DNA from: Nitrospinota bacterium
Lineage (GTDB): Bacteria; Nitrospinota_A; UBA7883
Assembly (NCBI GenBank): GCA_965223725.1
Contig: CBDCXE010000006.1
Span: forward strand, 610,012-674,011
Direction: 5' to 3'
Length of the DNA stretch: 64,000 bases
The position numbers were made by a program, and so were the translations under genes. Within the stretch, counting starts at the first letter, position 1. Every line of letters begins with the position of its first letter. Shown piece after piece: positions 1 to 44,305 of the stretch. The notes under the pieces were generated by a model, which was not told the DNA's origin, made no database searches, and saw only the letters and a program-made list of their open reading frames with translations.

Positions 1-1
1 A

Positions 2-691
2 AAACTGGCTGAAAAAGCTGGCTATGAATTGATTAGCAATAATAGTGGAAGTAAAAAAACAATGTTTTTTATTGCTGATTCATTTGCTACATGGAACAAG
101 GAATATTTGGCAAGTTCATATAAAAACACTTTTATAGTAAATACATGGAGTCAATCATGGAGTCGTATGGAACAATTTCCAATAGATGCGATTAATACAA
201 TTAAACCAGATCTAGTTCTTATGCAATTTTCTGAAAGTCGCCTTGGTGTTAAACGAATAAGCCCATTCATTGTCCCACCATATGGCGGCGCAAACCCCCC
301 TCAAGTGAGGCAAGCTCGGCTGAGGCGACTCTACAAATCGACTAGGGACACTGCTTCGGCTACCGTTAAAAAGGTGTCTGGCGCTGATGGTAAATCGTTT
401 AATTTAGAATTAAACAAGCCAACAGCGAAAATGGTCATTGCACGCTTTGAAGTAATGGCGCATAAAGCGACGACTCTTTCTGTGCAATCCAACTTTAGGA
501 AAAAGGAGAAGTGGAGCGATCTATGCTATAAATATGACGAAATGACAATCATCCATATAAAGCCGGGACGTCACACTGTATATCTTTGTGGGCAGATAAA
601 AGAAAATATTTCTCACCTTACATTTGCAACAACTGAGCCACAGGACCTAACTATAGTAAAAGTGGATGTGCGACCGCATCTAGATCCGTAG
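2..691 (+). CDS. hypothetical protein, 5'-truncated at the window edge (frame open from nt 2; first ATG at 29)
   Basis: ORF track 29..691. The same frame has no stop back to nt 2, so the gene probably continues left of the window. Codon usage is AT-rich like the rest of the island. No catalytic motif recognised. Confidence 0.35.
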   Translation, partial: KLAEKAGYELISNNSGSKKTMFFIADSFATWNKEYLASSYKNTFIVNTWSQSWSRMEQFPIDAINTIKPDLVLMQFSESRLGVKRISPFIVPPYGGANPPQVRQARLRRLYKSTRDTASATVKKVSGADGKSFNLELNKPTAKMVIARFEVMAHKATTLSVQSNFRKKEKWSDLCYKYDEMTIIHIKPGRHTVYLCGQIKENISHLTFATTEPQDLTIVKVDVRPHLDP

Positions 692-765
692 CTATTATTT
701 CTCAGCCGCATTATATCGCATGATGATCCTTGGGCCATAAAGCCTATAGCAACGCTTTATAAAAT

Positions 766-1443
766 CTATTTTGGTTTAGAGCCGAGTATGAAAAACTGTT
801 TTCCTAGAAGAGGCCAGATCAGTGGGATTCGAAGATAAAGGGCTATGAGGGCTGGATGTTTTGGAAACCGCGATTTAGTAGAATAAGGTACAAACCGGTC
901 TATTAATCGATCAACACTAAATCCAGATTTCAGGAACGCTTCGGCGCACGATAAATGTGATAAAGGCAGATGATGGTCATAAAAATCCCAATATTGGCCT
1001 GGGACGTACCTGATATTCGGTTGTAAAGCCATAAATCGACCACCCGGTTCGAGGATACGTAAAACTTCCGCCAAAAGTGTATCAAAGGTCTTTTTGTCTG
1101 GCAAATGCTCGAAAAAATTACTGGTAAATACAACATTGACATCCTCATCCTTAATGAATGAGAGATCTGTTGCGGAGCCTAAATGAAAAGTTACATCAGG
1201 ACCAACAGATAAGGCGGAATCAGGGTTTAAATCCACGGCAAGTTTTTTCCCTGCGTTAATATGTCTGCTGAACTCCCCATATCCTGACGCCAAATCCAGA
1301 AGCGTGTCGCTTGGATTGATATACTGCTGGAAAAATTTTTCGCACAACACTTTCCAAACCATATCCTTTTCGAGTTTCTCCTTTTCAGAGAACCTGTGCC
1401 GATAGAGAACATCTACCTTCTCCACTGCTCTATCGCTCCACAC
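766..1443 (-). CDS. class I SAM-dependent methyltransferase
   Basis: Motif I-like VLDLASGYGEF followed by an acidic loop (Rossmann MTase fold). 225 aa. 14-nt overlap with the upstream GT2 gene, which suggests an operon. Confidence 0.7.
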   Translation of the reverse strand: MWSDRAVEKVDVLYRHRFSEKEKLEKDMVWKVLCEKFFQQYINPSDTLLDLASGYGEFSRHINAGKKLAVDLNPDSALSVGPDVTFHLGSATDLSFIKDEDVNVVFTSNFFEHLPDKKTFDTLLAEVLRILEPGGRFMALQPNIRYVPGQYWDFYDHHLPLSHLSCAEAFLKSGFSVDRLIDRFVPYSTKSRFPKHPALIALYLRIPLIWPLLGKQFFILGSKPK

Positions 1444-2146
1444 GCTCGTAATCAGCAGAAAAAATATTTTTCCATATTTTTAGCATATCTTTAATAGTAG
1501 CCAAGATATTTTTTACAGACACACTGTTACCTTGCCCAAAAGTTCGTGGAAAGGTCTGTATGCCAACCTGCCCGACCTGGTATCCTTTGAGCATGGATTT
1601 AATAGCTATTTCGGCGCCAATAAACGGGCTGTCAGATTCAAGCTTTATATCATCCGCGACTTTCTTTTTCATCATTCGCAGACCGGTGGAAATATCGCGA
1701 AAATGGGTGCGAAAAAGGAATCTTAATATGACATTATAGACCCAGGAGACAAAAATTCTCCAGTTCGAATAAATCTTCTTATAACGAAAGGTTATTATGA
1801 GATCATAATGATCTTTGACCAGAAAAATTTTGTTAAACTCGCCCACATCATACTGGTTATCTCCATCAAGCATTAATATCCACTCGTATTGACACGCGTT
1901 TATTCCTGTTCGAATAGCAGCCCCATAACCTCGGTTTTCCGGGTGATGAATAACTGATATATTTTTATGTTCGCCAGCCAGTTCATCAGCTATCGCGCCT
2001 GATCGATCGGGCGATCCATCATCCACAATAATAACTTCATATGGACAGCCAAGACTCTCAAGCAGGGCAATGGCGTTTTCTGCTACAGTACGGACGGTCC
2101 CCTCATCTCCATATACCGGAAAAAAAAGGCTTGCTGATGTAGGCAT
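1430..2146 (-). CDS. GT2-family polyprenyl-phosphate sugar synthase (Ppm1/ArnC/GtrB-like glycosyltransferase)
   Basis: EVIIVDDGSPD...HPENRGYGAAIRTG...LMLDGDNQYD. This is the typical GT-A DXD layout of dolichyl/undecaprenyl-phosphate hexosyltransferases, and the protein ends in a C-terminal helix. Confidence 0.75.
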   Translation of the reverse strand: MPTSASLFFPVYGDEGTVRTVAENAIALLESLGCPYEVIIVDDGSPDRSGAIADELAGEHKNISVIHHPENRGYGAAIRTGINACQYEWILMLDGDNQYDVGEFNKIFLVKDHYDLIITFRYKKIYSNWRIFVSWVYNVILRFLFRTHFRDISTGLRMMKKKVADDIKLESDSPFIGAEIAIKSMLKGYQVGQVGIQTFPRTFGQGNSVSVKNILATIKDMLKIWKNIFSADYERVER

Positions 2147-2159
2147 AATAATATTTAAC

Positions 2160-2897
2160 CTAAAAATTCATGCGACGGAAAATACTCCATGGTGTCCACT
2201 TTAAAGCAGCGGATATCCACATCCAAAAACTGGGAATATACCATACCCCCCCCTTATTACCTAGGTTATTAACAACCTTCTCTGCAATACGCTCCGGACT
2301 GGCTTTAGGGATAGGAGTAGACATCCCGAATGCCTGGCCAGTGTCGAGATAGCCAACAATGTAAAAAGATACCATTACACCGTATGGAGCAAATCCATGA
2401 CGTATCGACTCGAAAAAACTGGCCAAAGCCCGTTTAGCCGCGCTGTAGTAAATATTTGCATTCCTCCCTCTGGCAGCGGCGATAGAACCAAATCCTACAA
2501 TATCACCTTTGCGCTCTTTTATTATTTTAGGAGAAAAATAAGATATAATTTCGCTCACTGAAGAGAAATTGGCGGCCAATACTTCTATGCCTATAGTTTC
2601 ATCCGGAGGAAATCGATCTTCGTCCCAGGTTGCGCCAATCGGAAATAGCATTCCATTTAGCTCTCCGGTTTTGTCTATCGCCTTCTCAAGTTTACTGAGG
2701 TCAGGGCGGGATGAAGCGTTGAAGGAAAGGGCCACCGGACAAATGGAAACGCCATAGCGTATGGCGCAGTCTGTGGCAAGCGCATCCAGGTCACGCTGGT
2801 CACTGGAGACAATAACCAGGTTGGCTCCTATCCTGGCCAGCGCTACTGTAATTGCTCTTCCGAGGCCTGAAGACGCCCCAACGACAAGGTATGTCAT
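2160..2897 (-). CDS. short-chain dehydrogenase/reductase, DprE2-like (polyprenyl-phospho-2-keto-sugar 2-reductase)
   Basis: N-terminal VVGASSGLGRAIT dinucleotide motif. YSAAKRAL matches the catalytic YxxxK. The C-terminal WSIFRRM tail resembles DprE2 RSIFRKL. ATGA 4-nt overlap with the upstream FAD oxidase gene. Confidence 0.7.
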   Translation of the reverse strand: MTYLVVGASSGLGRAITVALARIGANLVIVSSDQRDLDALATDCAIRYGVSICPVALSFNASSRPDLSKLEKAIDKTGELNGMLFPIGATWDEDRFPPDETIGIEVLAANFSSVSEIISYFSPKIIKERKGDIVGFGSIAAARGRNANIYYSAAKRALASFFESIRHGFAPYGVMVSFYIVGYLDTGQAFGMSTPIPKASPERIAEKVVNNLGNKGGVWYIPSFWMWISAALKWTPWSIFRRMNF

Positions 2898-4228
2898 AGT
2901 CCTGCTCTCATAAGTAATTCAGACATAAATACCCTGTTTGGGTCAAGTTTATTAATTCGGTCAATAGTAAGTTCATACTCTGGATAACTGGCAGACACGA
3001 CCTCCTGTGAAAGTCGGGAGTCTTTAATCAGGTTGGGAATTGCTTTATGCTCCAGGCAAAGCTCGTCAAAAGCTGTGAGAAATATCGATGTAGAACTTGT
3101 CTGGGCCATATCAAGCGTAACGCATATCCCAGGGCCTGCAAAGCGAAAACCAGTTTGCAAGCCAGATGATTTTTTTAATGATATCATGACACCAGGAGCA
3201 TTGTGATTAAACAGCAACGCTTCCAAAAGTTCAAGGAATGCCCCTGCTTTTTCATCAGTTATAATTACCTGCGCTTCCGCCAAACCACGCTTGCCATAGG
3301 CTAAAAAATAATATGGGTTGGCGGCGAAAGGAAAAGTTGATGCAAATAACGATATATTGTTCGTAGAAGTTTTTTTCTCTTCTTGATGCAAATAAAATTT
3401 TAAAGCTGCATTTCTCAATGGGCTGGCCCAAAGGGAGATAGGTGAAATAGAGCGAGCTCGAGCGGTGATGGGTCGGTATGAGGGTGGAGATGTGAATTTA
3501 CCATTTCCCTCTGCTGGTTCACCTGTATACAAAAATCCTCGACCGAATAATCCTTTCGTGGGAGACGCAACATGGAATGTATAGGCAAAATTGGAAGAAG
3601 AAACAGCGCTCGAACGTAATTGTTCCAAACCTTCTGTCAATGAGTTTAGTGAACTGCGATGGAGAAGAGTCTTTTCTCCCTTTTTAATTTGTTCAAGACG
3701 AAGAGTGGCGCTTACGATAATTCCTGTGGAGCCATAACCACCACAGGTCAAATCGAAAAGTTCCTTGTTTTCTTCTTCCGACAACGTAATAAGACCATGA
3801 GCAGGATGATAGAGGACTAATGAGATTACACAAGAATGAAAGCTTCCTGCAACTCCAAAATTTTTTCCGTTTACATCTGCAGCAATGCAACCTCCAATAG
3901 TGATATCTGGATAGCCAGGTTGGACACCAAGGGCAAGCCCACGCCGGGAGGTGGCGCCTAAAAGTTCCCCCAGGGTTATACCAGCCTCAACAGTGACTGT
4001 TTTATTATTTTCATCCAGGAAAAGGATTCTGGAAAAAGAACGCATGGAGACCGTAGTGACACCTTGTCCAAAAGAGGCCGCTGCATAGGAATAGCCGCCA
4101 CCTTGAGCAATATATGGCCCTTTAGCCCACGTTTGGTCAAACACACGGTATCTATCAGGCCGCGCAAAGTCAGAAGAGATAGATATCTGGCCATCGAAAG
4201 ATAAAAATTTGCTTAACTCTGTTTTCAC
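2894..4228 (-). CDS. FAD-linked oxidase, DprE1-like (polyprenyl-phospho-sugar 2-oxidase)
   Basis: GGCIAADVNGKNFGVAGSFHSCV and STGIIVSATLRL match the DprE1 FAD-binding (PCMH) core GGAIACDIHGKNHHSAGSF / LTGIIMRATIEM. The C-terminal KDSR...YP...INKLDPNRVFMSELLMRAGL matches the DprE1 C-terminus. Confidence 0.75.
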   Translation of the reverse strand: MKTELSKFLSFDGQISISSDFARPDRYRVFDQTWAKGPYIAQGGGYSYAAASFGQGVTTVSMRSFSRILFLDENNKTVTVEAGITLGELLGATSRRGLALGVQPGYPDITIGGCIAADVNGKNFGVAGSFHSCVISLVLYHPAHGLITLSEEENKELFDLTCGGYGSTGIIVSATLRLEQIKKGEKTLLHRSSLNSLTEGLEQLRSSAVSSSNFAYTFHVASPTKGLFGRGFLYTGEPAEGNGKFTSPPSYRPITARARSISPISLWASPLRNAALKFYLHQEEKKTSTNNISLFASTFPFAANPYYFLAYGKRGLAEAQVIITDEKAGAFLELLEALLFNHNAPGVMISLKKSSGLQTGFRFAGPGICVTLDMAQTSSTSIFLTAFDELCLEHKAIPNLIKDSRLSQEVVSASYPEYELTIDRINKLDPNRVFMSELLMRAGL

Positions 4229-4779
4229 GTATTATTATGCTTGTTGATTATCTGTATTGTAGCAATTAATATTAAATTACTTACCGTCTGCCTAAATTAT
4301 TAGCCACCATGCCTGGAGAAAATAAAGAGATTTAGTCTATGCTCATAACTGTATTACAATAACGATTTAAATAAGTTAACTTCCTGGTTTTATCATAATA
4401 TAGCAGAGTTAAAATAAATTCTATATTGCCATATTATTTTTAAGTAAACTTTTTCCAAAATTATATAAGTAATAACCTCTGGTATGTGATATTTATTTTA
4501 TAAGAAATTTGCAAACAGTATCATGTGTGTTATCCTGTGTTGGATTTATGCCAAATAATGCAAAGTAATTATAACCGATAACAAATTAACTAATAAAGTC
4601 TTAAGATGCAATTGTATGGAGACTGCCAAAAAAAATGCGGACTTGTACCTGCAAGTTAAGCAAAAAATCTGTGAAAAGCGCTTGCTTATTTAGAACCTGA
4701 CGATAAAACTAAAATAAAATCGCCTGCATCAGTCTGGCAATGGCAACATCACATGTTTGTTTAAATAACACTATTTTAA
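4229..4779. promoter_or_regulatory. 550-bp extremely AT-rich divergent intergenic region (bidirectional promoter region for the DprE1-like operon and the GT-C-like gene)
   Basis: Divergent gene starts at 4228 (minus) and 4780 (plus). The region has long AT runs and no ORF of 60 aa or more. Confidence 0.35.
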
Positions 4780-7110
4780 TTGTCATTTATGCTTAAACCA
4801 ATTGTATACACTGCACTTACTTTTACGGTAATTATTATTTTTACCGTATTCAACCCACTTTTGCCTGGTGTGGGCCTCGATATTTCATGGTATCTTGCAA
4901 ACAACCAAGCAGTAGCGCAGAACGTGGTGTTTGGTGAGAATTTGCTAACTACGCTTGGTCCATACCCATCAATTTATTCGAACGTCTATCATCCTGATAT
5001 TCACCAAATGGCGTTACTAGGTGGCATACTGATTGGCGTATGCTATTCAGTATTATTATTGCTCATTGCGATTGAGTTAGACTGGAAATGGTTGATCCTT
5101 TACATTTGCTTCTTATTTGCCTGTCGTGTCCCGTTTGATACTTATTTGTTTTCATATATCTTCTTTATGTCAATAGTTGTCTACCGTATGACCCTGCCCA
5201 TCTCATCCAATCTTGTGTTGGAGAACACTGCACAAAACAAATGTTTTTATATTTTAGCGCTTGTACCATTGGGACTTTTGTTACTAACCAAAGGATCCGT
5301 CATACCATATATAGTATTAGCTGTTGGTATATGCGTCATTATGTTTTGGATGAGCCGTGATAAAGCATTCGCTTTAATTACTATCATAGTGCCAGTTGCC
5401 AGCTCTTTAGCTTTCTGGGTTGTTTCTGGACAACCTTTATGGGCCTTTCCAAAGTTTGTTGGTAATATGCTTGAAGTTATATTTGGATATTCAGATGCGA
5501 TGTCAGCATCAGGACCAGGTGGCTCATCGCATATTGCTTTGTATTTAATAACATCAGCGATGATTCTTTACCTAACGACAAAAAAAGAGTTTGGTCCACT
5601 CGTTTCAAGACTTCTGCTGTTTACAACGTTTTCATTATTTTTGTACGTTTCATTTAAAGCCGGTTTTGTTAGAGCCGGTATTGGCCATCAAATGATGGCT
5701 AGCACTTCTCTGGTCATAGCGGCGTTATCCATATTACTATTATCTAAAAGTAAATTGCGGTTAATCATACTGCCATTTGTAATAATTACATGGGTATTTA
5801 TTGACGGTCATTTTTATAATAAGCCGGCGGAGAACTTGACCGGGTTACTGCGCTGGGCTGTTGGTGACAGGAATTTTGAAGAAGAATATGAAAATAAATT
5901 TAGTGAAATTAACAGGAAATACTATATTCCTAAACTAACAGGGACAGTGGATATCTATTCTTTTGGTCAGTCATTTTTACTAGCTTCCGGAAATAAGTAT
6001 AACCCACGACCAACGGTGCAAAGTTTTGCGGCGTACACACCATATCTGGCTAGCCTGAACGAGAGATACATTCGAGGATCCAACGCGCCAGACAACATAT
6101 TATTTAGGGTGGAAACCATAGATCACCGATTTCCAAGCCTTGATGATGGAATAAGTTGGCCCACTTTGCTTAACAGATATGAAATATATGGATATGATGA
6201 ATATTTGGATTTATTCTACTTGAGGAAAAAGGCCGAGGCAAAGGGTGATCTTTTTGATGATGAAACAGTTGATATCCAAGGCAATTTCCAACAGGAGATA
6301 TCACTACCTGATAGTGAGGAGGTGTTGTTTGCAGAATTTGATATTAAGCCAACATTATTTGGCAGGGCTATGTCTATTATCTATAAACGCCCCAAAATTG
6401 AAATCAGTATTGTCCTGGAAAGTGGACGATCCCGAACTTATCGAATAATTCCTGGTATGGCCAAGTCTGGTTTTATTATTTCTCCGTTAATTGAACGCAC
6501 AAGAGAATTTATATTTCTAAACAAGCCATACCAGAGCTATTTATCTCCAAATCGTGTGAAAAGTATAGTAATTTCGTCAACTCAAGGTATTTTTAAATCG
6601 TGGGACGAACATTTCATGCTGCGACTTGGAAAGGTAAAGATAGAGTCAAATAGAGACGCCAACCTGTTAAAAGTCATAGATTACGATTACTCAAAAATGG
6701 CGCTACACCCAGCCCAATCTATTAAAATTAGTGTAAAGTGCCAGGGAGGAGTCGATACAATAAATGGCTTCAGGGTAGATAAAAAAATAATAAACGTTTC
6801 TAAAACACTCTTGGTCTATGGATGGTCCACTGCATATTCAACAAAAAGTAAAGTCGCCAGCAATATTTATTTGACTTTAACCGATATGCATGGAGAGACT
6901 AAATATTTGGAAACAAAAAAAGTTGTCAGGCCAAATCTTGCAGAGTATTTTAATAATCCAATGCTATTAAACGCTGGATATTTTGCGAATATTAATATTT
7001 CTAACATTGAAGGGAAATATGCTTTAGGCATATCCCATATGCTTAATGGCTCAATCAAACATTGTGCTAGTCCTCAAATTCAGCTAAATATTAATAAGCA
7101 ACCTAAATAA
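4780..7110 (+). CDS. polytopic membrane protein, candidate GT-C-fold glycosyltransferase using a lipid-linked sugar donor
   Basis: 776 aa. The N-terminal ~400 aa carry roughly 11-13 hydrophobic helices. The C-terminal ~370 aa form a soluble domain, the architecture of Emb/Aft/ArnT-type GT-C enzymes. The gene is divergent from the DprE1/DprE2/GT2 operon. Confidence 0.45.
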   Translation: MSFMLKPIVYTALTFTVIIIFTVFNPLLPGVGLDISWYLANNQAVAQNVVFGENLLTTLGPYPSIYSNVYHPDIHQMALLGGILIGVCYSVLLLLIAIELDWKWLILYICFLFACRVPFDTYLFSYIFFMSIVVYRMTLPISSNLVLENTAQNKCFYILALVPLGLLLLTKGSVIPYIVLAVGICVIMFWMSRDKAFALITIIVPVASSLAFWVVSGQPLWAFPKFVGNMLEVIFGYSDAMSASGPGGSSHIALYLITSAMILYLTTKKEFGPLVSRLLLFTTFSLFLYVSFKAGFVRAGIGHQMMASTSLVIAALSILLLSKSKLRLIILPFVIITWVFIDGHFYNKPAENLTGLLRWAVGDRNFEEEYENKFSEINRKYYIPKLTGTVDIYSFGQSFLLASGNKYNPRPTVQSFAAYTPYLASLNERYIRGSNAPDNILFRVETIDHRFPSLDDGISWPTLLNRYEIYGYDEYLDLFYLRKKAEAKGDLFDDETVDIQGNFQQEISLPDSEEVLFAEFDIKPTLFGRAMSIIYKRPKIEISIVLESGRSRTYRIIPGMAKSGFIISPLIERTREFIFLNKPYQSYLSPNRVKSIVISSTQGIFKSWDEHFMLRLGKVKIESNRDANLLKVIDYDYSKMALHPAQSIKISVKCQGGVDTINGFRVDKKIINVSKTLLVYGWSTAYSTKSKVASNIYLTLTDMHGETKYLETKKVVRPNLAEYFNNPMLLNAGYFANINISNIEGKYALGISHMLNGSIKHCASPQIQLNINKQPK

Positions 7111-7322
7111 ACCACCAATGCAGTCGATAACTAACAAGGCTATATATTACGTTAGCATTATTTCCAGCTGGCGCAGAATAAAAAGATATGTTTCGATTAA
7201 ACCGCACGATCGATTAAAAAATAGAAGAGATACGCGGTTCCATTTTGATTATTCACTGTTAAATTTATAACATATATATACAAACTGGCTACTGTAATAA
7301 TTTAGCGAGATTGCTGTTTGAG

Positions 7323-8270
7323 TCAATTCTGCTCCGCTTCCTTGACGGAATATGCTTTCTTGATTCCGAGTGTACAGCCGCCACATATTGGATGACCAAC
7401 TCTCGATTGGTTTTCAACTCTCAACTGCCTTAGTTCAGGTTTATTATAGATTTCCAAAATGCTTTCATCTTTAACATTGTACTTTCCTAAATCTCCATTC
7501 GCGTCCAGACAGCAAAATGCGACTTTACCATCGGAACAGATATGTATCTGGAACCATTTTGCACACCCTATATCCGGGGTTTCGCTGGTTTTGAGATCAC
7601 TTACCGAGCCTAACCAATTGAACGGTTCGGTAAGAGCGGGGTTAAACATAGGGAATTCATTTTCAACGAAAGCAACATAGTTATCATCATCCAAATTATT
7701 GCTTGCGACACGGGATAAAGTTACAGGAAAAGCAATGTTCCCGTTTACTTTTTCATCATGTAGTAATCTTAAATTGTTCATTATAAGATCCCACGATAGC
7801 CCCATGCTATGTTCATATTTTTCTGGTTCGCATTCATTAAGCGAGACGTTCAACATCATGATATTTTCAAGTTCTGCAAATTTATCGATGATTTTCCCAT
7901 TTAGAGGAGATCCATTTGTATAAAAAGGTATTCTTGCTTGCGGAGCGACCGTTTTTACTTTATCAATAGCATCGAAGATATCTTTATTTAGAAGCGGTTC
8001 ACTTAGGCTTGATAATACTATCCTTATTGGAAGTTTATTTGGAAATTCACCTAGGTCATGCAATATTTTTTCGAAAAGCTCACCTGACATTTTTTCACCT
8101 TTTCTAGATGAACTATCATATGGACAAAAATTGCAAGTAGCGTTACACAGGTTTAATAGATCAAATGTGACCTGGAAAGGATATTCAGAATATCGTTCTT
8201 GCAGAATGGATATCAGATTCTGATATTTAGTTAAAGATTCTTCATTATAGAAATCATTTTTATTATTCAT
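7323..8270 (-). CDS. radical SAM protein with C-terminal SPASM/twitch-like cysteine cluster
   Basis: CNATCNFC is a CX3CX2C radical-SAM motif near the N-terminus. A second Cys cluster lies C-terminally (CSDGKVAFCCLD ... GHPICGGCTLG). Confidence 0.65.
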   Translation of the reverse strand: MNNKNDFYNEESLTKYQNLISILQERYSEYPFQVTFDLLNLCNATCNFCPYDSSSRKGEKMSGELFEKILHDLGEFPNKLPIRIVLSSLSEPLLNKDIFDAIDKVKTVAPQARIPFYTNGSPLNGKIIDKFAELENIMMLNVSLNECEPEKYEHSMGLSWDLIMNNLRLLHDEKVNGNIAFPVTLSRVASNNLDDDNYVAFVENEFPMFNPALTEPFNWLGSVSDLKTSETPDIGCAKWFQIHICSDGKVAFCCLDANGDLGKYNVKDESILEIYNKPELRQLRVENQSRVGHPICGGCTLGIKKAYSVKEAEQN

Positions 8271-8367
8271 GGCAATATTTCCATTTGAAACGAAACCAAC
8301 ATTGCTATAGTAACTGAAAAATTAAATGGCAGGTTGACTGATTTGCAAGTAGAAAAACGTCATGGAG

Positions 8368-9009
8368 TCAATACCGCAATAACCACCCATTTGGAGAATA
8401 AGTTACATTGTATCCATAAAAATCACAATAAGACGCATCGATCTTATAGCGTTTGTAATTTGCTTTTAGGAATGCTTCTACCGCCCGGTTAGGGCCATTA
8501 TTAAACATTTCAAACTGTTTAAGAGGCATGTCATTCAAAATGCCATCCTCTATCACAATATATTCGCCCGGGTGAAGGTAATTATCAAAAAAATTAAGAG
8601 CAGCAGTGCATGTTTCAAATAGATGACCACTATCTTCTACCACTAGCCACGGACGGGGAAGCGAAGATAAAAAACTCTCCGGTAACACTTTTTCCAAATC
8701 AAGGACATCCCCTTCAAGAAATGTTATCCGTTCATCTTCAAACGTTGCTATCGGGTTATTGTCGATGGTGACTATGCGAGGTTGATAACCCATGTTTGAA
8801 GCTGTATCGGCAAACCATAGAGCGCTTCCGCCTTCCTTTGTGCCCAGTTCGATAATAGTCTTTGGTAAGGTTTTCTGGATAAGACGCATATATGAAACGA
8901 TATCAAAAGGGCATTTGATGAATCGGTAACCTTTATAAGTTGTACGTGCAATACCTTGATGAATACCTATTATAGTATCTGCTGGTAGCGATGATTTAAA
9001 GTCACGCAT
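8368..9009 (-). CDS. CmcI/cephalosporin-hydroxylase-family SAM methyltransferase (rhamnosyl O-methyltransferase-like)
   Basis: IIELGTKEGGSALWFAD resembles the CmcI family (PF04989-like) Rossmann motif. 213 aa. Confidence 0.5.
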   Translation of the reverse strand: MRDFKSSLPADTIIGIHQGIARTTYKGYRFIKCPFDIVSYMRLIQKTLPKTIIELGTKEGGSALWFADTASNMGYQPRIVTIDNNPIATFEDERITFLEGDVLDLEKVLPESFLSSLPRPWLVVEDSGHLFETCTAALNFFDNYLHPGEYIVIEDGILNDMPLKQFEMFNNGPNRAVEAFLKANYKRYKIDASYCDFYGYNVTYSPNGWLLRY

Positions 9010-9187
9010 CGAAGTTACAATTACTTTTCATTTTTATGATGCAATTTATAGCATTCGTTTGTTTTGTTAACTTTTTTACGCTTTCCAAACAGTACTTGCT
9101 ATCAATCGATTAGCGCTGGTTTATGATTTGTCTGGGTTGTGTTCAAAGAGTTGCAAATAATAGTTATATTTTTGTTATCTATTGATT

Positions 9188-10036
9188 CTAGTCTGGCGAT
9201 TTCTTTTTTAACGCAAAAAAGCCTTGTTCTAGTACGTCAGGATGATCGACGTAATAGATAAGATCGAGAAACCCACCCCACATCCTTCTAGCGTAAGCAT
9301 CGGTCATGAAAGAATAACCGTAATCAAGATGATTGTAATTGCCTTTGCCGGAGCCTGGCATAAAGACCATTTCTCCCATTTCCATAAATTCAACAAACCG
9401 GCCAAAAGATTCTAAAAAAGGTCGATGTGCTTCACGACGGGACGGTGGCAGTTGATCAACAGGAGTTTCCATTATCGTCTGGTAATGGCCCATGCCAAAC
9501 GATGTAATGAATATCACACCATTAGGTTTTAGGGTGCGTGACATTTCATGCAACCAGTCCAGCCCATGCGCCTGACTTAAATGTGAAAAGACTGAATAGG
9601 CAGTAATGTAATCAAACGATTCATCCTGAAAAGGAAGTTTTGGCGGTTTCGCCGCAATCGGGTGAAAAGTCCCTTGAGGGAAATCTTTTTTTACAGTTTT
9701 GACAAAATCTGGAACCACGTCAACTCCATGAATATGAGCGGCTGGAACATTGCGCAAAAATGTCCTTCCAATACGAGCTGTAGTACCGCAACCAAAATCG
9801 AGAATCTTTGAGTTTTTATCGAGCGTCAAACCTTTACGCCATATTGCGCGTGTAGCTTCGTTATAAAAGCATGTTGCCTCAGATATAGAATCTTTGGCGG
9901 TTGCGCTTCCAAGCATGGCATTATGGGAATACTTGCCGAAGGCCCCCCCATCGACACTATTGTCTGCAAGCGATTCAATCCATGCGTCCCTGAATTCTTC
10001 AACAGGCTTTTTTTCATATTTTTCAAACAGTTCCAC
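9188..10036 (-). CDS. class I SAM-dependent methyltransferase
   Basis: Motif I ILDFGCGTTARIG. Motif II/III acidic residues follow. Confidence 0.7.
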   Translation of the reverse strand: MELFEKYEKKPVEEFRDAWIESLADNSVDGGAFGKYSHNAMLGSATAKDSISEATCFYNEATRAIWRKGLTLDKNSKILDFGCGTTARIGRTFLRNVPAAHIHGVDVVPDFVKTVKKDFPQGTFHPIAAKPPKLPFQDESFDYITAYSVFSHLSQAHGLDWLHEMSRTLKPNGVIFITSFGMGHYQTIMETPVDQLPPSRREAHRPFLESFGRFVEFMEMGEMVFMPGSGKGNYNHLDYGYSFMTDAYARRMWGGFLDLIYYVDHPDVLEQGFFALKKKSPD

Positions 10037-10269
10037 GTTATCAAGGCCTCCGTTAGTCGCAAATGTAATAATGATTAGCCTCGCAATATAGCATACTTGT
10101 TAAACAGAGCAAATATTTTTAGCTATAGCAACGCTCGATTGCAGACATAATCACTTTTTGGTGTTGCCACAATTTACGCACTAAATACAATTTGTCATTG
10201 ATTTTGTCTGCGAGAAATTTTTCGGTAAACCACTTTACCTTGTTATAAGAACTTTTATACATAAACTTC

Positions 10270-11259
10270 CTATTTGGGAGAGGGTAATGTATACCCAGCG
10301 CTTTTTAGATCTAACCCGGTTAACGTAGAAAGAGATAAGTTATCTTCAGCATAATATTCGTTAATGAATTTCATAGACTCTGGTGAAAAGTATCGCGGGG
10401 GTGTGTCAATATATGAGATAAGCTCCATCACTCTTCCATGAACCCCTTCTTCAAAAGTACCCCATGGCCGATAGTCGTATGAAGGGTCCACTCTTTTTCG
10501 CAATCTACCCATTTTTTTTAAGATACGCTGATACCCACTGCCAAACCTTCCAAAAGATACATTATGCCTGGGTTCTTCACTGAGAAAGTCTGCGCATTTT
10601 TTTGTATCAATGCCAGCAAACTCAGATAACGTTTTTGCAAACAGGTCCAGATTGCCCTTCAACCATTCAAGGGGGATAACCAAAACATTTTCTTTTCCAA
10701 AAGTGTCCTGGTAACAACTTACCAATGGACTGTAAAGATATTGCCGCAGATGAAAGTCATTCTGTTGGCCATGATAGTAGTTGAAGGACCTCATCCAGTT
10801 TATCCAGTCATCGCTTGAACCTGTAAACAAGTCTCTCGTAGCAAGCCATCGATAGCCAGAAAATAGAACTGACTTTTGCTCCCTTATGGTTATGAGAATT
10901 CTTACCTTGCCGAAAATACTCTGCAATCGCTGACAGATTAACAAAGGGTCTGCCGCGCCAGCTAAAGATAGCGCTTCTTCAGATAGAACTGTAACAGGCT
11001 TCTCGTTAAGCCGGGGCTTGATACCATGATCATATAACTTATAGGCATTATTCAAATCAAAAAAGTAAGCTGAATGCTGACATATAGATTCAAGCAAAGA
11101 AGCAGTTGATTTGCTCATATCATACCCAACGGCTTCATCCCAATAAGGTTTCCCAAGGTACCGAATATCTGGATGTTTTGCGAACAGGTTAAATTGTAAG
11201 GTGGTAGTGCCGGTTTTCGGCGGGCCGATATGGATAATAAAAGAAGACTCGTTCGCCAT
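10270..11259 (-). CDS. sulfotransferase (PAPS-dependent)
   Basis: N-terminal 5'-PSB loop HIGPPKTGTTTLQ. 329 aa. 1-nt junction with the upstream sulfotransferase gene. Confidence 0.65.
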   Translation of the reverse strand: MANESSFIIHIGPPKTGTTTLQFNLFAKHPDIRYLGKPYWDEAVGYDMSKSTASLLESICQHSAYFFDLNNAYKLYDHGIKPRLNEKPVTVLSEEALSLAGAADPLLICQRLQSIFGKVRILITIREQKSVLFSGYRWLATRDLFTGSSDDWINWMRSFNYYHGQQNDFHLRQYLYSPLVSCYQDTFGKENVLVIPLEWLKGNLDLFAKTLSEFAGIDTKKCADFLSEEPRHNVSFGRFGSGYQRILKKMGRLRKRVDPSYDYRPWGTFEEGVHGRVMELISYIDTPPRYFSPESMKFINEYYAEDNLSLSTLTGLDLKSAGYTLPSPK

Positions 11260-12032
11260 CAGGTCAACAGTTTCTTTTTCAGGTCATTAAACCTGCCCAC
11301 TGCCTGGTGATAGACATCCATTTCTTCTGCCAGCAGTGATTCCAGCTTTTGGCGTTCAGCGGTTGTAATTTTATCCCTGTCAGTTTTTCCATCCGGGTTT
11401 ACATTTATAAAACGTACAGGCTCAACTTTTCCTGACTTGTTAACAGTCAATCTGCCACTGGCATATCGATAGGCGATCCTTTGAAAGTAATTCATATTGA
11501 TCATGTTTTCGACTTCGCTTCTGTCATAGGCTTCTGGCAATCGAAGCTTTGTATTCAGAAACACTTCCAGCATTTCTATTGTAACGCCCAATTCTTCAGA
11601 TAACCCGATGAAATCGTATTCATTGATGGGTTTTCCCTCCAGATAAATGGCCATAGCTCTTGTCATACTAGGGAACGAAGCGAAAGTGACCACATCAAAA
11701 CCATTTTGTTTCATAAACTGGTACGATGGCTTGGTTTCATCTTTTATCCGTAAGATATGCCGATAATTTGAGATCATACGATCAACCGGATGCCTGACAC
11801 AGGTAATGTAGGAAGCGTCATCAAATATACCTTCATACTTTTTGTAGTGAAAATGCCCATGGATCATTTTAAACCGCCTAAGGAAATCTTTATGCAAAAT
11901 TACCTGCGCCCTGTCCTCATCCCTGGGGATATGTTGGTAATAATCAAAATATACGTGGCGGCTGAACGAGTGGTCGAAATAGTTGGCTAATGTGGTGCCA
12001 GCAGTTTTCGGGATGTGTATGGAAATAATCAT
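11259..12032 (-). CDS. sulfotransferase (carbohydrate sulfotransferase-like, Sulfotransfer_2-type)
   Basis: N-terminal IHIPKTAGTTLANYF 5'-PSB motif, typical of Gal-3-O / HS-2-O sulfotransferase-like enzymes. 257 aa. Confidence 0.65.
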   Translation of the reverse strand: MIISIHIPKTAGTTLANYFDHSFSRHVYFDYYQHIPRDEDRAQVILHKDFLRRFKMIHGHFHYKKYEGIFDDASYITCVRHPVDRMISNYRHILRIKDETKPSYQFMKQNGFDVVTFASFPSMTRAMAIYLEGKPINEYDFIGLSEELGVTIEMLEVFLNTKLRLPEAYDRSEVENMINMNYFQRIAYRYASGRLTVNKSGKVEPVRFINVNPDGKTDRDKITTAERQKLESLLAEEMDVYHQAVGRFNDLKKKLLT

Positions 12033-12309
12033 ATCAGGAGATTATAAATCAATTAAACTAGATCAGCTTTTGTAAGCGAATAATTGCATTCATTAAAACC
12101 CCATCTGATTTGCGTATTTAAATAGAATTGTTTTCGTATCTTTCCGGCGGGATTTTATCACACACTAATATTTCCTTACAACCGAACATGAATAAATCAG
12201 AACGACAGCAATTAAATTAAATAGTTTTATTTATATAATATACAGCATGATCAAAGCCTTACCCTGTATAATATGTATTTGTGGCCACTAAAATATTTTC
12301 ATCTATCTA

Positions 12310-12394: not shown

Positions 12395-12470
12395 GCCGGC
12401 GTAGCTCAGTTGGTAGAGCAGCTGATTTGTAATCAGCAGGCCGCGGGTTCGAGTCCCATCGCCGGCTCCA
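12395..12470 (+). tRNA. thrU: tRNA-Thr (anticodon TGT)
   Basis: Cloverleaf read by eye. Acceptor stem GCCGGCG/CGCCGGC. GTAGCTCAGTTGGTAGAGC D-arm. Anticodon loop TTTGTAA. GGTTCGAGTCC T-arm. Encoded CCA. Confidence 0.9.
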
Positions 12471-12541
12471 TATGTTTCCAGCTGTCAGTGGCGGTGTTAG
12501 TCTATTAATTATAATAATTTAGAAAGTCCATAGTTGGATTC

Positions 12542-12626
12542 GGGGAGGTTCCCGAGTGGTCAAAGGGAGCAGACTGTAAATCTGCCGGCATAGCCTTCGG
12601 AGGTTCGACTCCTCCCCTCCCCACCA
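12542..12626 (+). tRNA. tyrU: tRNA-Tyr (anticodon GTA)
   Basis: 85 nt with a long variable arm. Anticodon loop ACTGTAAAT. GGTTCGACTCC T-arm. Acceptor stem GGGGAGG/CCTCCCC. CCA encoded. Confidence 0.9.
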
Positions 12627-12639
12627 TTTATTAGGTTGG

Positions 12640-12715
<76 letters not shown>

Positions 12716-12787
12716 TTGGTTTCTAATCGCAGGAGCGATGGAGCGAAGGATATAGGCAAAGAGAGCGCTTACGCTTTTTAATAAAGC

Positions 12788-12862
12788 GCCCGCGTAGCTC
12801 AGTGGTGGAGCGCTTCCTTGGTAAGGAAGAGGTCATCGGTTCAATCCCGATCGCGGGCTCCA
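12788..12862 (+). tRNA. thrT: tRNA-Thr (anticodon GGT)
   Basis: Acceptor stem GCCCGCG/CGCGGGC. Anticodon loop TTGGTAA. GGTTCAATCC T-arm. CCA encoded. Confidence 0.9.
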
Positions 12863-40973: not shown

Positions 40974-41711
40974 ATGAACGAAAAAATCGATATACAAGTA
41001 CAAAAAGAAACCGAGCGCTCCGACAAGTCCAAGCTTAGGCAATATCAGGACATGGTGGTGGGCAGCCGGTCGATATGGTTTTTGATCAAGTTCGAGCTGG
41101 TCGCTTTGTTTGTATCACGAATTCCCGGGGCGCTGGGCCTGCTGTTGCGGAAAATATTTTATCCAATGATATTGGCGGAAGTGGGCAGCGGTGTAGTGTT
41201 TGGGACAGACTGCTGGTTCCGCCACCCGGGCAAGATAAGAATAGGCGCCGACACGATTATAGACGACGGTGTGTTGATCGACGCCAAAGGATCGAACAAT
41301 AAAGGTGTACTTATCGGCCGGGGCTGCTACATAGGCCGGGGGACGGTGCTCAGCTGCAAGGAGGGGGACATCATACTGGGCGAGGCTGTGAACCTTTCCA
41401 CATGGTGCAATATTTCTTCAAACTCCAGTATCGAGATCGAAGAGAAAACATTGCTGGGCCCCTACGCTTCCATATTCGCCACGGAGCACAACTTCGATGA
41501 TCCAGGCATCGATATCCTGGATCAGAAATGGTCCAGCAAGGGCGTGACGATAAAACGGAACTGTTGGCTGGGCGCCAGGGTGACCGTGCTGGATGGTGTC
41601 AGCGTGGGGGCCAATACCATTATCGGCGCCGGCTCGGTGGTCAACGATGATTTGCCGGATGATGCGATCGCGGTGGGCTCGCCGGCGAAAACTGTGAAAC
41701 AGAGGCGATGA
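40974..41711 (+). CDS. membrane-anchored left-handed beta-helix (hexapeptide-repeat) acetyltransferase, WcaF/NeuD-like sugar O-acetyltransferase
   Basis: N-terminal TM helix. Hexapeptide repeats IGRGCYIGRGTV...LGARVTVLDGVSVGANTIIGAGSVV. Confidence 0.7.
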   Translation: MNEKIDIQVQKETERSDKSKLRQYQDMVVGSRSIWFLIKFELVALFVSRIPGALGLLLRKIFYPMILAEVGSGVVFGTDCWFRHPGKIRIGADTIIDDGVLIDAKGSNNKGVLIGRGCYIGRGTVLSCKEGDIILGEAVNLSTWCNISSNSSIEIEEKTLLGPYASIFATEHNFDDPGIDILDQKWSSKGVTIKRNCWLGARVTVLDGVSVGANTIIGAGSVVNDDLPDDAIAVGSPAKTVKQRR

Positions 41712-44305
41712 CCCAACTCAGCCCCATAAGCCGGGCAATCGCTGTTTTCATTATTTTTTTCGGGTTGGGCATAGCGCACTCCTGGCCGCTGGCTCCGTAT
41801 GTATTAAAGGGCATCCCATACGCCCTGGACCCGATTCCCAACCATGAGCTGTTCCCGCTCCAGCATGGCGACCACCTTCAATCGTACTACCACCTGGGGC
41901 TGCTGAAAAATGCGGCGGCGGGTCGGATCGACTGGTTCACTAACCCGCTGGAGTTCGTCACCGAACATGAATCGGGCGATCATCCGGCGAGCTATTATTT
42001 TCTGCCGGTGTCGATTATCTCGTTGCCGTTTTCCGCTGTTTCCGAGCCGCTGGGGTATAACATGCTGCTGCTGATATGTGTCGCGCTGGGCGGCTTGTCG
42101 ATGTATTTGTGGGCGAACCTGCTGATCGGCAACTTCTGGGCAGGACTGTTTGCCGGGTTTCTGTTTAATTTTATCCCGGTCCGCATGGCGGAGCTTTATG
42201 GCGGGCACCCGGCCGGCCTTGCTATCTTCCTCCTGCCGTTGACGCTCTATTTTTTCGACCGGGCAATCATAGAAAAAAGGATTCTGTTTTCCGCGCTGGG
42301 CGGCCTGGCGCTGTTTGCGCTCTCCTTCCAGTACCTCTATTTCAGCTACTACCTGCTGATGTTCCTGATGGTTTATATACCGTGGCGGCTGGTTCCTGCT
42401 GTTGTGGGGTCGGTTAACAAAGGATGGGATGAAGTTTGCAAGTTGGCGGGCGCCAGTCTCCCGTTTGCCATCGGCGCCTTGTCGGCGATCGGGTGGATGT
42501 ACTACTATTCCCGTTCTGTGGTGGCGTCATCCGCCTTTTCCGCTAAACGGACCATGAACGAGGTGGCGCTGTTTTCCCCCGATATTTCCAGCGCCTGGTC
42601 GCCCCAATTGGATTGGAAAGTCTATTTCGGTCTGCCGATCATTGCGCTGCTTTTTGGTCTGATAGTTGGCGTCGTTAAAGTTATCAACCGCAAACCCATA
42701 GGGTGGGAGTATCTGTTTTTTTCGATTCTTTTTGTTGTCAGCTATATCCTGGCCTTTGGCGCGACCCTGGACCGGTATATCCCGCTCTATTCACTTTTCT
42801 ACGATTACTTTCCATACTTCGACCTGTCGAGGTCGCCATCCAAGATCATGGCTCTCTGCGCCGCGTTGCTTGCCGTTCTGGGCGCGTATTTCGTAAGCTG
42901 GGCGTGGCGGAGAGCAGGCGGCGGCTTTATATGGAGGTCGGTCGTGGCGTTGCTGGCCGCCATTACCATCATCGATTACCACCCCAACGGCGGTATCGGC
43001 ATTTGCCTGCTGGACAGGGGCAACAAAATCTATAAACAAATAGCGGAAACATCCGATGGTGGATACGTATTGAACCTGCCCATATGGCCCGGCGACAGCT
43101 CGTGGGAGTCTATATACCAGTATTACGCCTTACAAAGCGGGGTGGCGATGGTCAACGGGTATTCGCCGGTGGTTTCCAAAAGCTATGTGGATAATGTTTT
43201 CTGGAAGCTGTTCACCATGAACAGCGGTAATGTGACGAAGGAGCAGATAAACTTTCTGAAAGATAAAAACGTAAAGGCGATCGTGTTCCATGAAGAAGCT
43301 TATCCAAACAAAGTTTCGCCATTTCCAGCGTCTGTCGCATTGAACAGATTAAAATCATCCGCTCTGCTTGATATGGTGGGGCAGGATGGGCCGCTGACAC
43401 TTTTCAGAATATCCGATAGCGAACAGGCCAAAAACGATCGACCGGTCAGCTCCCCCATGTCCGCCCTGTACCAGGCGGAGGCGCTGATAAAAATCGATGG
43501 AAAAGTGATGGAGGATGATGACGCTGTAAACGACCTGGCGCTATATGGCGCCGGCGCTATGAGGAGGACCGGTTTCCTCGGCGCAGGGCCGTATCAAAGT
43601 TTTCCAAGTGGCAGTTATAATGCTGTTTTCCGGGCAAAAGTGGCGGACAACACCATAGATGAACTGGCGGTTCTGTTCGATGTGTCAGCCAACAGCGGGA
43701 GGGACGTTTTAGCCAAGCTGGCCATTAAAAATTCTGATTTCGTTGAGCCGGACAAATATCAGGAGTTTGCTTTACCGTTCGAAGTTGTTGCTGAGAAGTC
43801 AACCAAGATTGAGTTTCGTTCCGCCCTGCCGGAAAGCAGCGCCGGGGTATATGTGGACTGGATATATGTGACCTTTGCTGATCAAACCGACCCGGAGTAT
43901 TCCTATGAGATCGAAGATTTCTTCCATATAGGCGCGACGGTGGAGGACCAGATGGCGTCTGCGGGCAAATCCTTGTATGCTCATCCAGACCAGGACCCTG
44001 CGGGTATGATCGCCCATGGCCCAATGCGGAAACTGGAGGAGGGCGCGTACATCGCCTATTTCAGAATGAAAGCTGATATGGTGGAGGCAGACAGCCGGGT
44101 CGCTGTGCTGGAGGTGGCGTCCGCTGGCAGATCTGAAACGATCGCACAGCGTGATGTGATGGGCAGGGAGCTGGGGGGCAGCAGCGGTTACATCGAGGCG
44201 TCCATCGATTTTCTGCTTGAGGAAACCGATTTCATAGATTTCCGCGTCAGGTTCACCGGCGCCACGGCGCTATATCTTGATAAAATCCGGATAGAAAAAA
44301 AGTGA
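41708..44305 (+). CDS. large polytopic membrane protein (865 aa), YfhO/GT-C-like candidate glycosyltransferase with ~350-aa C-terminal extracytoplasmic domain
   Basis: More than 10 hydrophobic helices in the first ~480 aa, with acidic/His motifs in the first loop (HGDH, ESGDH). ATGA overlap with the acetyltransferase gene. Confidence 0.45.
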   Translation: MTQLSPISRAIAVFIIFFGLGIAHSWPLAPYVLKGIPYALDPIPNHELFPLQHGDHLQSYYHLGLLKNAAAGRIDWFTNPLEFVTEHESGDHPASYYFLPVSIISLPFSAVSEPLGYNMLLLICVALGGLSMYLWANLLIGNFWAGLFAGFLFNFIPVRMAELYGGHPAGLAIFLLPLTLYFFDRAIIEKRILFSALGGLALFALSFQYLYFSYYLLMFLMVYIPWRLVPAVVGSVNKGWDEVCKLAGASLPFAIGALSAIGWMYYYSRSVVASSAFSAKRTMNEVALFSPDISSAWSPQLDWKVYFGLPIIALLFGLIVGVVKVINRKPIGWEYLFFSILFVVSYILAFGATLDRYIPLYSLFYDYFPYFDLSRSPSKIMALCAALLAVLGAYFVSWAWRRAGGGFIWRSVVALLAAITIIDYHPNGGIGICLLDRGNKIYKQIAETSDGGYVLNLPIWPGDSSWESIYQYYALQSGVAMVNGYSPVVSKSYVDNVFWKLFTMNSGNVTKEQINFLKDKNVKAIVFHEEAYPNKVSPFPASVALNRLKSSALLDMVGQDGPLTLFRISDSEQAKNDRPVSSPMSALYQAEALIKIDGKVMEDDDAVNDLALYGAGAMRRTGFLGAGPYQSFPSGSYNAVFRAKVADNTIDELAVLFDVSANSGRDVLAKLAIKNSDFVEPDKYQEFALPFEVVAEKSTKIEFRSALPESSAGVYVDWIYVTFADQTDPEYSYEIEDFFHIGATVEDQMASAGKSLYAHPDQDPAGMIAHGPMRKLEEGAYIAYFRMKADMVEADSRVAVLEVASAGRSETIAQRDVMGRELGGSSGYIEASIDFLLEETDFIDFRVRFTGATALYLDKIRIEKK

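Follow-up and report, generated by a model that had tools for sequence, protein, structure and literature searches.

What is the role of a large membrane protein that no family model recognises and whose gene lies back to back with an operon for the epimerisation of lipid-linked sugars? The question is raised by a locus in the genome of a Nitrospinota bacterium (assembly GCA_965223725.1, contig CBDCXE010000006.1), of which we analysed a stretch of 64,000 nucleotides, hereafter the window, with positions counted from its first letter. In this window, a 773-amino-acid (aa) protein with 11 predicted transmembrane helices (TM) is encoded divergently from genes for a DprE1-like oxidase, a DprE2-like reductase, a GT2 glycosyltransferase and a methyltransferase. 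Its relatives form a large unannotated GT-C-like family that is best described as the habitual partner of DprE1/DprE2 lipid-sugar epimerase modules, and we consider it likely, on balance, that the protein itself works as a glycosyltransferase of the GT-C fold class in the inner membrane, on its periplasmic face.

A membrane-protein family beside DprE1/DprE2 genes

No Pfam or NCBIfam model matched the window protein, nor, even at E ≤ 1, any of 37 + 64 diverse relatives, and the Burkholderia stagnalis and Rhizobium tumorigenes relatives are "hypothetical protein" to the Prokaryotic Genome Annotation Pipeline (PGAP). The family is large nevertheless: when 1.84 billion 50%-identity cluster representatives were scanned exhaustively with phmmer, 5,914 matched at E ≤ 1e-3, of which 1,407 reached E ≤ 1e-30. 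In one genome per species, scanned from motif seeds, 315 stretches were confirmed to encode a relative, in as many species. Carriers include Pseudomonas, Burkholderia, Achromobacter, Bordetella, Legionella, methanotrophs, Acidobacteriota and candidate phyla, and the 80 genome loci kept for comparison extend from Gamma-, Beta- and Alphaproteobacteria to Bdellovibrionota, Acidobacteriota, Nitrospirota, Verrucomicrobiota, Planctomycetota, Bacteroidales and candidate phyla. One relative, in Legionella parisiensis (L169 8378-10275), lies away from epimerase genes and is split into overlapping genes of 208 and 424 aa, probably through a frameshift.

To compare gene surroundings, open reading frames (ORFs) were called in the 80 loci with flanks of up to 10 kb and clustered, and Pfam was used for assignments. 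A DprE1 gene was present in 35 of the 80 loci and a short-chain dehydrogenase/reductase (SDR) gene in 32, and 39 carried one or the other within 10 kb, directly adjacent to the family member and on the same strand in 16. A fusion of a HAD phosphatase with UbiA, the polyprenyl phosphoribose synthase type, was found in 32 loci, GtrA in 28 and a methyltransferase in 20, and at least one donor-pathway marker occurred in 52. Genes followed a recurrent order, starting with the HAD-UbiA fusion, DprE1-like oxidase, SDR and family member, and continuing with another unannotated protein of 11 TM in some cases, then a GalE-like epimerase, an FAD (flavin adenine dinucleotide) amine-oxidase-like protein, GtrA and a methyltransferase; the same cluster appears in the Burkholderia stagnalis and Rhizobium tumorigenes records. 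Co-occurrence with the epimerase genes, on which the initial annotation had made its proposal of a transferase for their product depend, was therefore borne out at this frequency. The architecture is that of three-component systems for the periplasmic addition of pentofuranoses, in which arabinofuranose is specified by DprE1/E2 homologues and the GT-C genes mostly carry a hypothetical annotation (Kelly et al., PMC11127046).

The operon of the window fits the same description. Its four minus-strand genes (766-4228), reported by the initial annotation as a divergent DprE1/DprE2/GT2 operon, were confirmed by profile and PDB matches (Table 1). The oxidase matched the NCBIfam DprE1 model over its full length (E 8e-47), yet below the equivalog cutoff; its best PDB matches were all DprE1 (E 6.5e-26, aa 36-441), other FAD oxidases matching in the FAD domain only, and it retains the KDSR lysine. 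The SDR stands next to DprE1 without exception in related loci. With full-length DprE1 homology and a paired SDR, the window thus carries a DprE1/DprE2-type epimerase module, whose oxidase is predicted to act on the 2-hydroxyl of a lipid-linked sugar, and the GT2 enzyme is predicted to be a polyprenyl-phosphate sugar synthase. Of all proteins in the cluster, the methyltransferase shows the strongest conservation, with about 50% identity between phyla as against 25-38% for the transferase and epimerases.

On the plus strand, the ORF described in the initial annotation is real and runs from a TTG codon at 4780 to 7110, giving 776 aa. An ATG at 4789 is the probable start instead, since it would yield 773 aa, the exact length of a database protein (P0001) that is 100% identical to this version. 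The AT-rich region of about 550 bp noted between the divergent genes measures 551 bp, and position 4229, formerly given as the beginning of the feature, includes this region and is not the gene start.

Two further unannotated multi-pass families are found in loci L004-L083 (e.g. L012 12300-14300, L053, L063, L066). One (about 570-610 aa, PVPYWDMW...QHNEHR after TM1) occurs in 23 loci and the other (about 430-530 aa, LWAEDG after TM1) in 10. Both look GT-C-like but are unrelated to the window protein's family by hidden Markov model (HMM), and neighbouring families memb609 and memb505, considered as its distant paralogues, found no support in HMM searches. In many clusters (L006, L011, L012, L018, L049, L053 and others) the DprE1/DprE2 pair is joined by the GalE-like nicotinamide adenine dinucleotide (NAD) epimerase and the FAD amine-oxidase-like protein. 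Such clusters could make lyxofuranose if the GalE-like enzyme inverts C3, as has been proposed for ORF13 of Citrobacter youngae O2; lyxofuranose has never been found in a glycan (Kelly et al., PMC11127046).

Topology, conserved residues and predicted fold

Hydropathy and AlphaFold secondary structure placed 11 membrane helices in aa 1-345, followed by two linker helices and a soluble part (aa 385-773), with about 430 aa of periplasmic portion in all. The two-part layout that had been proposed (about 400 aa of membrane domain and 370 aa of soluble domain) therefore stood, with a membrane domain shorter than expected. AlphaFold models were confident, with a pLDDT of 89.5 at full length and of 91.2 when aa 1-385 were modelled, and showed, in order, TM1, a 53-residue loop with two short helices (30-43 and 60-64), ten more TM, the two linker helices, an alpha/beta plus beta-sandwich region (aa 385-620) and a final beta-sandwich (aa ~650-773).

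Orientation was assigned from Lys/Arg counts at family level. Loops 95-100, 188-193, 263-270 and 318-324 are basic, as is the N-terminal tail, the first loop (0.038 Lys/Arg per residue) and region 213-245 are almost devoid of basic residues, and invariant K168 and R295 are the sole basic residues of two short outside turns. This pattern therefore indicates an N-terminus inside, 11 TM and a C-terminus outside, and the conserved polar residues (D31, D117, K168, K290, R295 and H300) all map to the predicted periplasmic face. In a fusion protein, P0010 (1,201 aa; L001 8001-11606), a GT2 domain homologous to the window GT2, one TM, a 120-aa domain and a further TM precede a full family member, and by the parity of its membrane passes the Asp loop lies on the side of the membrane opposite to the cytoplasmic GT2. 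A GT2 domain is also fused to a family member in L002, and P0010 adjoins genes for a UDP-glucose dehydrogenase and an NAD epimerase.

Conservation in the membrane domain is concentrated in a few polar positions, with D31, D117, K168, Q215, Y234, K290, R295, D297 and H300 invariant or near-invariant among 128-267 members. D31, at the start of the first periplasmic loop, was invariant in 24 sequences, at least 90% conserved in 128 and 92% in 267, and G49, G57 and P58 of the same loop are invariant. Where a conserved Asp/Glu pair had been anticipated, this loop shows a near-invariant Asp within a single-Asp motif.

Since a Foldseek search with the full-length model against PDB gave only immunoglobulin (Ig)-like matches to the C-terminal domain, the membrane domain was modelled and searched alone. 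Coherent superpositions were obtained with GT-C enzymes only, namely Pmt4 (probability 0.98, TM-score 0.49), Pmt1 and Pmt2 (probabilities 0.87 and 0.66), ArnT, AftB and ALG9. These made up six of the top 32 matches, all others having TM-scores of 0.24 or lower, and no transporter, Wzy or WaaL fold with a comparable TM-score was present among the membrane-domain matches in PDB. GT-C traits were also recognisable in the 11 TM (7-13 being expected) and in the extracytoplasmic loop after TM1 with its short helices and conserved Asp. The GT-C architecture claimed by the initial annotation accordingly held in its N-in topology, 11 TM, D31-bearing first outside loop and large periplasmic C-terminus. 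The structural matches were not significant by E value, and the unrelated transporter or polymerase fold that would have spoken against it did not appear with a comparable TM-score.

The soluble part comprises two regions. Its first (aa 380-625) is the most conserved part of the family, above all in residues 385-465 (D445 is 96% conserved), and had no annotated relative among 89 hits and no sequence relative in Pfam or PDB. Proteins encoded in phage records, Leptospira phage LE1 (L088 3677-4741) and MT837038.1, are related to this periplasmic domain only (aa ~385-570). The terminal beta-sandwich is probably glycan-binding, the family profile matching the C-terminal domain of the amidase 8c4d_A (E 0.0012) and the Foldseek matches being Ig-like.

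Table 1 Features of the locus (window coordinates)
Feature	Position	Strand	Evidence or remark
Class I S-adenosylmethionine (SAM) methyltransferase	766..1443	-	~50% identical across 22-24 related loci
GT2, 238 aa, ArnC/dolichol-P-mannose synthase (DPMS)/GtrB type	1430..2146	-	Best PDB matches ArnC, archaeal DPMS, GtrB
DprE2-like SDR reductase	2160..2897	-	DprE2 model over full length, E 4.7e-17
DprE1-like FAD oxidase	2894..4228	-	NCBIfam DprE1 and PDB matches
AT-rich intergenic region between divergent genes, 551 bp	4229..4779	.	28.7% GC
Gene for 773-aa GT-C-like membrane protein	4789..7110	+	ORF, identity to P0001, AlphaFold pLDDT 89.5
Membrane domain, aa 1-345, 11 predicted TM, N-terminus cytoplasmic	4789..5823	+	Hydropathy, AlphaFold, family positive-inside analysis, Foldseek
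First periplasmic loop, aa 19-71, GLD31xSW and FGPY motifs	4843..5001	+	D31 codon 4879-4881
K168 of LIKGS motif, invariant, on short periplasmic turn	5290..5292	+	Family alignment, positive-inside analysis
FKAGFVR-x-x-x-x-H motif, aa 289-300; K290, R295, H300 kept; A296/G297 replace family H296/D297	5653..5688	+	
Conserved periplasmic domain, aa 380-625, most conserved part of family	5926..6663	+	D388 99%, R407 99%, P408 100%, Q411 97%
C-terminal beta-sandwich domain, aa ~650-773	6736..7107	+	Absent from ~640-aa family members

A donor predicted to be made by GT2, and the weighing of alternatives

The window holds a rarer, undescribed variant of the epimerase-linked cluster in which the donor is predicted to be made by GT2. 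It has neither a UbiA-type synthase nor GtrA, a GT2 gene standing in place of the phosphoribosyl synthase gene, and among the genome loci only L017 (Pseudobdellovibrio) combines the window subtypes (GT2 55%, DprE1 36%, SDR 39% and methyltransferase 53% identity). Metagenomes were also searched with the window-type DprE1. Among the 20 metagenome loci whose best segment was at least 34% identical to the window oxidase, 11 had the same GT2 family beside window-type DprE1 (≥35% identity) and SDR, often with the methyltransferase, and none had a UbiA synthase, which was found in 22 metagenome loci at 33% identity or less. These results indicated a distinct DprE1 clade tied to a putative GT2-made donor, since GT2 accompanies close and UbiA distant relatives of the oxidase. 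The window protein's family is present in three of the GT2-type metagenome loci (L094, L097 and L098); others have different multi-pass proteins, including some that resemble LPG_synthase_TM (MprF flippase-like) by sequence. No description of GT2 coupled to DprE1/DprE2 was found in the literature searched. In six metagenome loci (L104-L107, L112 and L118), the DprE1-like match lies beside or within opposite-strand ORFs of 1,135-1,169 aa, which may be a fusion or an artefact of ORF calling.

In the pathway that we propose, the GT2 enzyme would transfer a sugar from a nucleotide donor to undecaprenyl phosphate on the cytoplasmic face, the DprE1-like oxidase and DprE2-like reductase would invert the C2 hydroxyl of the lipid-linked sugar, and the methyltransferase might modify the sugar further. 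A flippase encoded elsewhere would then move the donor across the membrane, where K168, K290, R295 and H300 of the 773-aa protein may bind the donor phosphate and D31 may serve as catalytic base, so that the sugar would be passed to a surface glycan held by the protein's own periplasmic domains. Taken as a whole, this mechanism is in our judgement somewhat more likely than not.

The flippase is a point of difference between the window and its relatives. The survey of multi-pass ORFs found no GtrA, MATE, SMR or MprF-like flippase in the window, the others being a CLC channel, YidC, MraY, FtsW and one 865-aa protein, and an HMM of GtrA built from the 28 neighbours had no match there, in agreement with what had been stated before. 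The three components of synthase, flippase and GT-C enzyme are thus not found together, the window having GT2, the epimerase pair and the GT-C candidate only, whereas related loci do carry GtrA (28 of 80) or LPG_synthase_TM-like proteins (Pfam-confirmed in genome loci). An unlinked flippase is plausible because ArnE/F can replace a GtrA-like protein (bioRxiv 10.1101/2020.04.19.049825).

Besides the missing flippase gene, several findings weigh against the proposed role. All Foldseek E values were at least 0.15 and none reached 1e-3, so that the structural matches have no significance alone. Sequence comparison matched no GT-C enzyme, hmmsearch of PDB chains being empty and hhalign of the family against Escherichia coli ArnT giving a probability of 0.1% (no match); a profile search of the protein database with the membrane domain returned just five matches and was uninformative. 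Where the family reads FKAGFVRHDxH, the window protein reads FKAGFVRAGIGH, and D297, conserved in 91% of the family, is replaced by glycine. The periplasmic domain is better conserved than the membrane domain, which would also fit a catalytic centre outside the membrane. The closest homologue (P0002 in L003, 56% identity) has no adjoining epimerase, its locus being one of those free of epimerase-pathway markers, and no pathway marker was present in 20 of the 80 loci. Apart from these points, co-regulation of the transferase gene and the operon through their common intergenic region can only be inferred, since promoter-like sites in 4229-4779 are at chance level (14 against 14.1 in shuffled sequence) and neither a noteworthy small ORF nor an Rfam match lies in the region.

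Two of these points, the closest homologue and the loci free of markers, bear on whether the transferase uses the product of the neighbouring operon at all. It could be a GT-C-type enzyme with another donor, its adjacency a by-product of one horizontally acquired glycan island. The surroundings of P0002, with an ATP-grasp gene, an outer-membrane factor, and GT2 and methyltransferase genes about 4 kb off but no DprE1, are consistent with this view, as are the divergent orientation, in which gene and operon are not co-transcribed, and the low GC content of region 1-12100 (39.6% as against 50% for 16000-64000). Region 1-12100 is bounded by a cluster of four tRNA genes (12395-12859), which tufA and the secE-nusG-rpl-rpoBC genes follow, and the modification genes near the transferase gene together with the low GC suggest a horizontally acquired glycan-modification island beside the tRNA cluster. 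Against an unlinked transferase stand the frequency of DprE1 or SDR near the family (39 of 80 loci) with direct same-strand adjacency in 16, and the recurrence of the same GT2, DprE1, SDR and methyltransferase subtypes together with a family member in L017 and L094. We therefore regard this explanation as unlikely.

Strong conservation of the periplasmic domain raises a different doubt, namely that the catalytic centre lies there, in a new type of glycan-modifying hydrolase, lyase or transferase for instance, and that the membrane domain is only an anchor or lipid channel. The residues most conserved in the family (D388, R407, P408, Q411 and D445) belong to this domain, which is without known relatives, whereas the carbohydrate-binding modules of GT-C enzymes are usually variable and that of ORF12 is dispensable (PMC11127046). 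However, the membrane domain has its own invariant D31, K168, K290 and R295 at positions typical of GT-C donor sites, and a lipid-linked donor, the product of the genomic partners, needs to be bound at a site within the membrane; a periplasmic centre thus appears quite improbable to us.

Least credible, and in our estimate very unlikely, is a window copy that has degenerated or changed to a role in glycan binding, scaffolding or donor flipping. In its favour, H296/D297 are replaced by Ala/Gly, no separate flippase is encoded in the window and a flippase role has been proposed, though not shown, for the GT-C enzyme TfpW (bioRxiv 10.1101/2020.04.19.049825). Against it, the reading frame is unbroken, the protein retains every other conserved residue, D297 is missing in about 9% of family members, including copies within complete clusters such as L066 and L027, and flippases can be unlinked, with ArnE/F substituting for GtrA.

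Loss of D297 was also considered as a hallmark of GT2-type systems and rejected: the window protein and one L017 copy lack it, but L094, with the same module of GT2, DprE1, SDR and methyltransferase, reads RHDVH.

Elsewhere in the window, genes downstream on the minus strand (7323-12032) encode a radical SAM/SPASM protein, a CmcI-like protein (rhamnosyl O-methyltransferase family), a class I methyltransferase and two sulfotransferase-like proteins, which suggest a methylated and sulfated glycan. The 865-aa membrane protein (41708-44305, plus strand; about 11 TM, a large C-terminal soluble part and no Pfam match) directly follows a hexapeptide-repeat acyltransferase (40974-41711) and may be another unannotated polytopic glycan enzyme; as a relative of the window protein's family it found no hhalign support. 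At 29-691 (plus strand), a 220-aa ORF was matched by no Pfam or NCBIfam model and lacks relatives in all 83 related loci.

Relation to known glycosylation systems

The nearest parallel by description is GT136 ORF12 of Citrobacter youngae O1, the last enzyme of a three-component periplasmic glycosylation system of a kind that can include DprE1/E2 epimerases (Kelly et al. 2024, PMC11127046). Like the window protein, as compared by description, it has 11 TM, a small helical periplasmic loop after TM1 with an Asp at position 31, which is catalytic in ORF12, and a beta-rich C-terminus, which in ORF12 is the glycan-binding domain. In a comparison of motifs made without alignment, however, only D31 of its essential residues D31, E34, H106 and R349 (with Y35 and Y350) is matched, the window protein having a conserved W34 and the basic motif K290/R295/H300. 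Its membrane module is also larger (about 500 as against about 345 aa), and a MATE flippase and a synthase dependent on phosphoribosyl pyrophosphate (PRPP) act with it; in the window, a GT2 gene is present and a flippase gene is not. Among the proteins of the 83 loci, the D..EY...RY pattern was seen only once, as a loose match in a 1,125-aa L003 gene where DNA polymerase III alpha is annotated.

In mycobacteria, EmbA-C and AftA-D use decaprenyl-phosphoryl arabinofuranose made by DprE1/DprE2. These enzymes are likewise GT-C, consume the DprE1/DprE2 product on the outer face of the membrane and in several cases have carbohydrate-binding domains. Homology to them was not detected, a profile search of all PDB chains (Emb and Aft structures included) giving no match to the membrane domain at E ≤ 10, and AftB alone is among the weak structural matches of the window protein. 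Their donor is derived from PRPP whereas that of the window is predicted to start from GT2, which qualifies the mycobacterial parallel.

Among Gram-negative systems, Pseudomonas aeruginosa TfpW is a GT-C enzyme (646 aa, 11 TM) that, with PsPA7_6246-6249, needs DprE1, DprE2, a PRPP-dependent synthase and a GtrA-like protein; it differs in its DDX motif, tetratricopeptide repeat (TPR) C-terminal domain and pilin locus, where the window protein has a single-Asp motif, beta-rich C-terminal domains and a place beside epimerase genes. The ArnC/ArnD/ArnE-F/ArnT pathway provides a similar logic, in which a GT2 enzyme makes an undecaprenyl-phosphate sugar that is modified on the lipid, flipped and transferred by a GT-C enzyme, and ArnC is the best solved relative of the window GT2; the Arn system modifies by deformylation and the window by DprE1/DprE2-type oxidation and reduction. 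Neither the window protein nor the 37 + 64 relatives matched Pfam or NCBIfam models of PMT or PMT_2 (GT39, GT83) at E ≤ 1. GtrA/GtrB/GtrC and CsbB/GtcA/YfhO also pair a GT2 donor synthase with a polytopic periplasmic transferase, but have no epimerase step and do have a small flippase, which the window lacks; no Pfam YfhO or Gtr match was found for the window protein or the relatives searched. Membership in the GT136, TfpW, Emb/Aft or ArnT families is therefore not supported, GT136 being compared by motif description only, while by analogy the mode of action may be like that of GT136 ORF12, TfpW, the Emb/Aft enzymes and ArnT.

More tentatively, and as something we hold to be a little short of an even chance, the window may encode a hybrid pathway new to the literature searched, in which GT2 makes a non-ribose undecaprenyl-phosphate sugar and a distinct DprE1/DprE2 clade inverts its C2 on the lipid, giving a new kind of donor. 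On this view the 773-aa protein would represent a GT-C family of its own, in effect a new one for CAZy, whose conserved periplasmic domain would take part in catalysis or in recognition of a conserved acceptor.

O antigens, capsules and pili are shaped by periplasmic glycosylation that draws on lipid-linked donors, with effects on serotype, phage sensitivity and vaccine design. The 2024 prototype, GT136, covers one GT-C family and PRPP-derived pentofuranoses only. Outside actinobacteria, no other membrane protein accompanies DprE1/DprE2 genes as regularly as the family described here. DprE-type epimerisation is validated drug target chemistry in tuberculosis, and the GT2-DprE1-DprE2 module would extend it to donors that are not derived from PRPP, offering a direct route to seek novel sugars in environmental and pathogenic Gram-negative bacteria.

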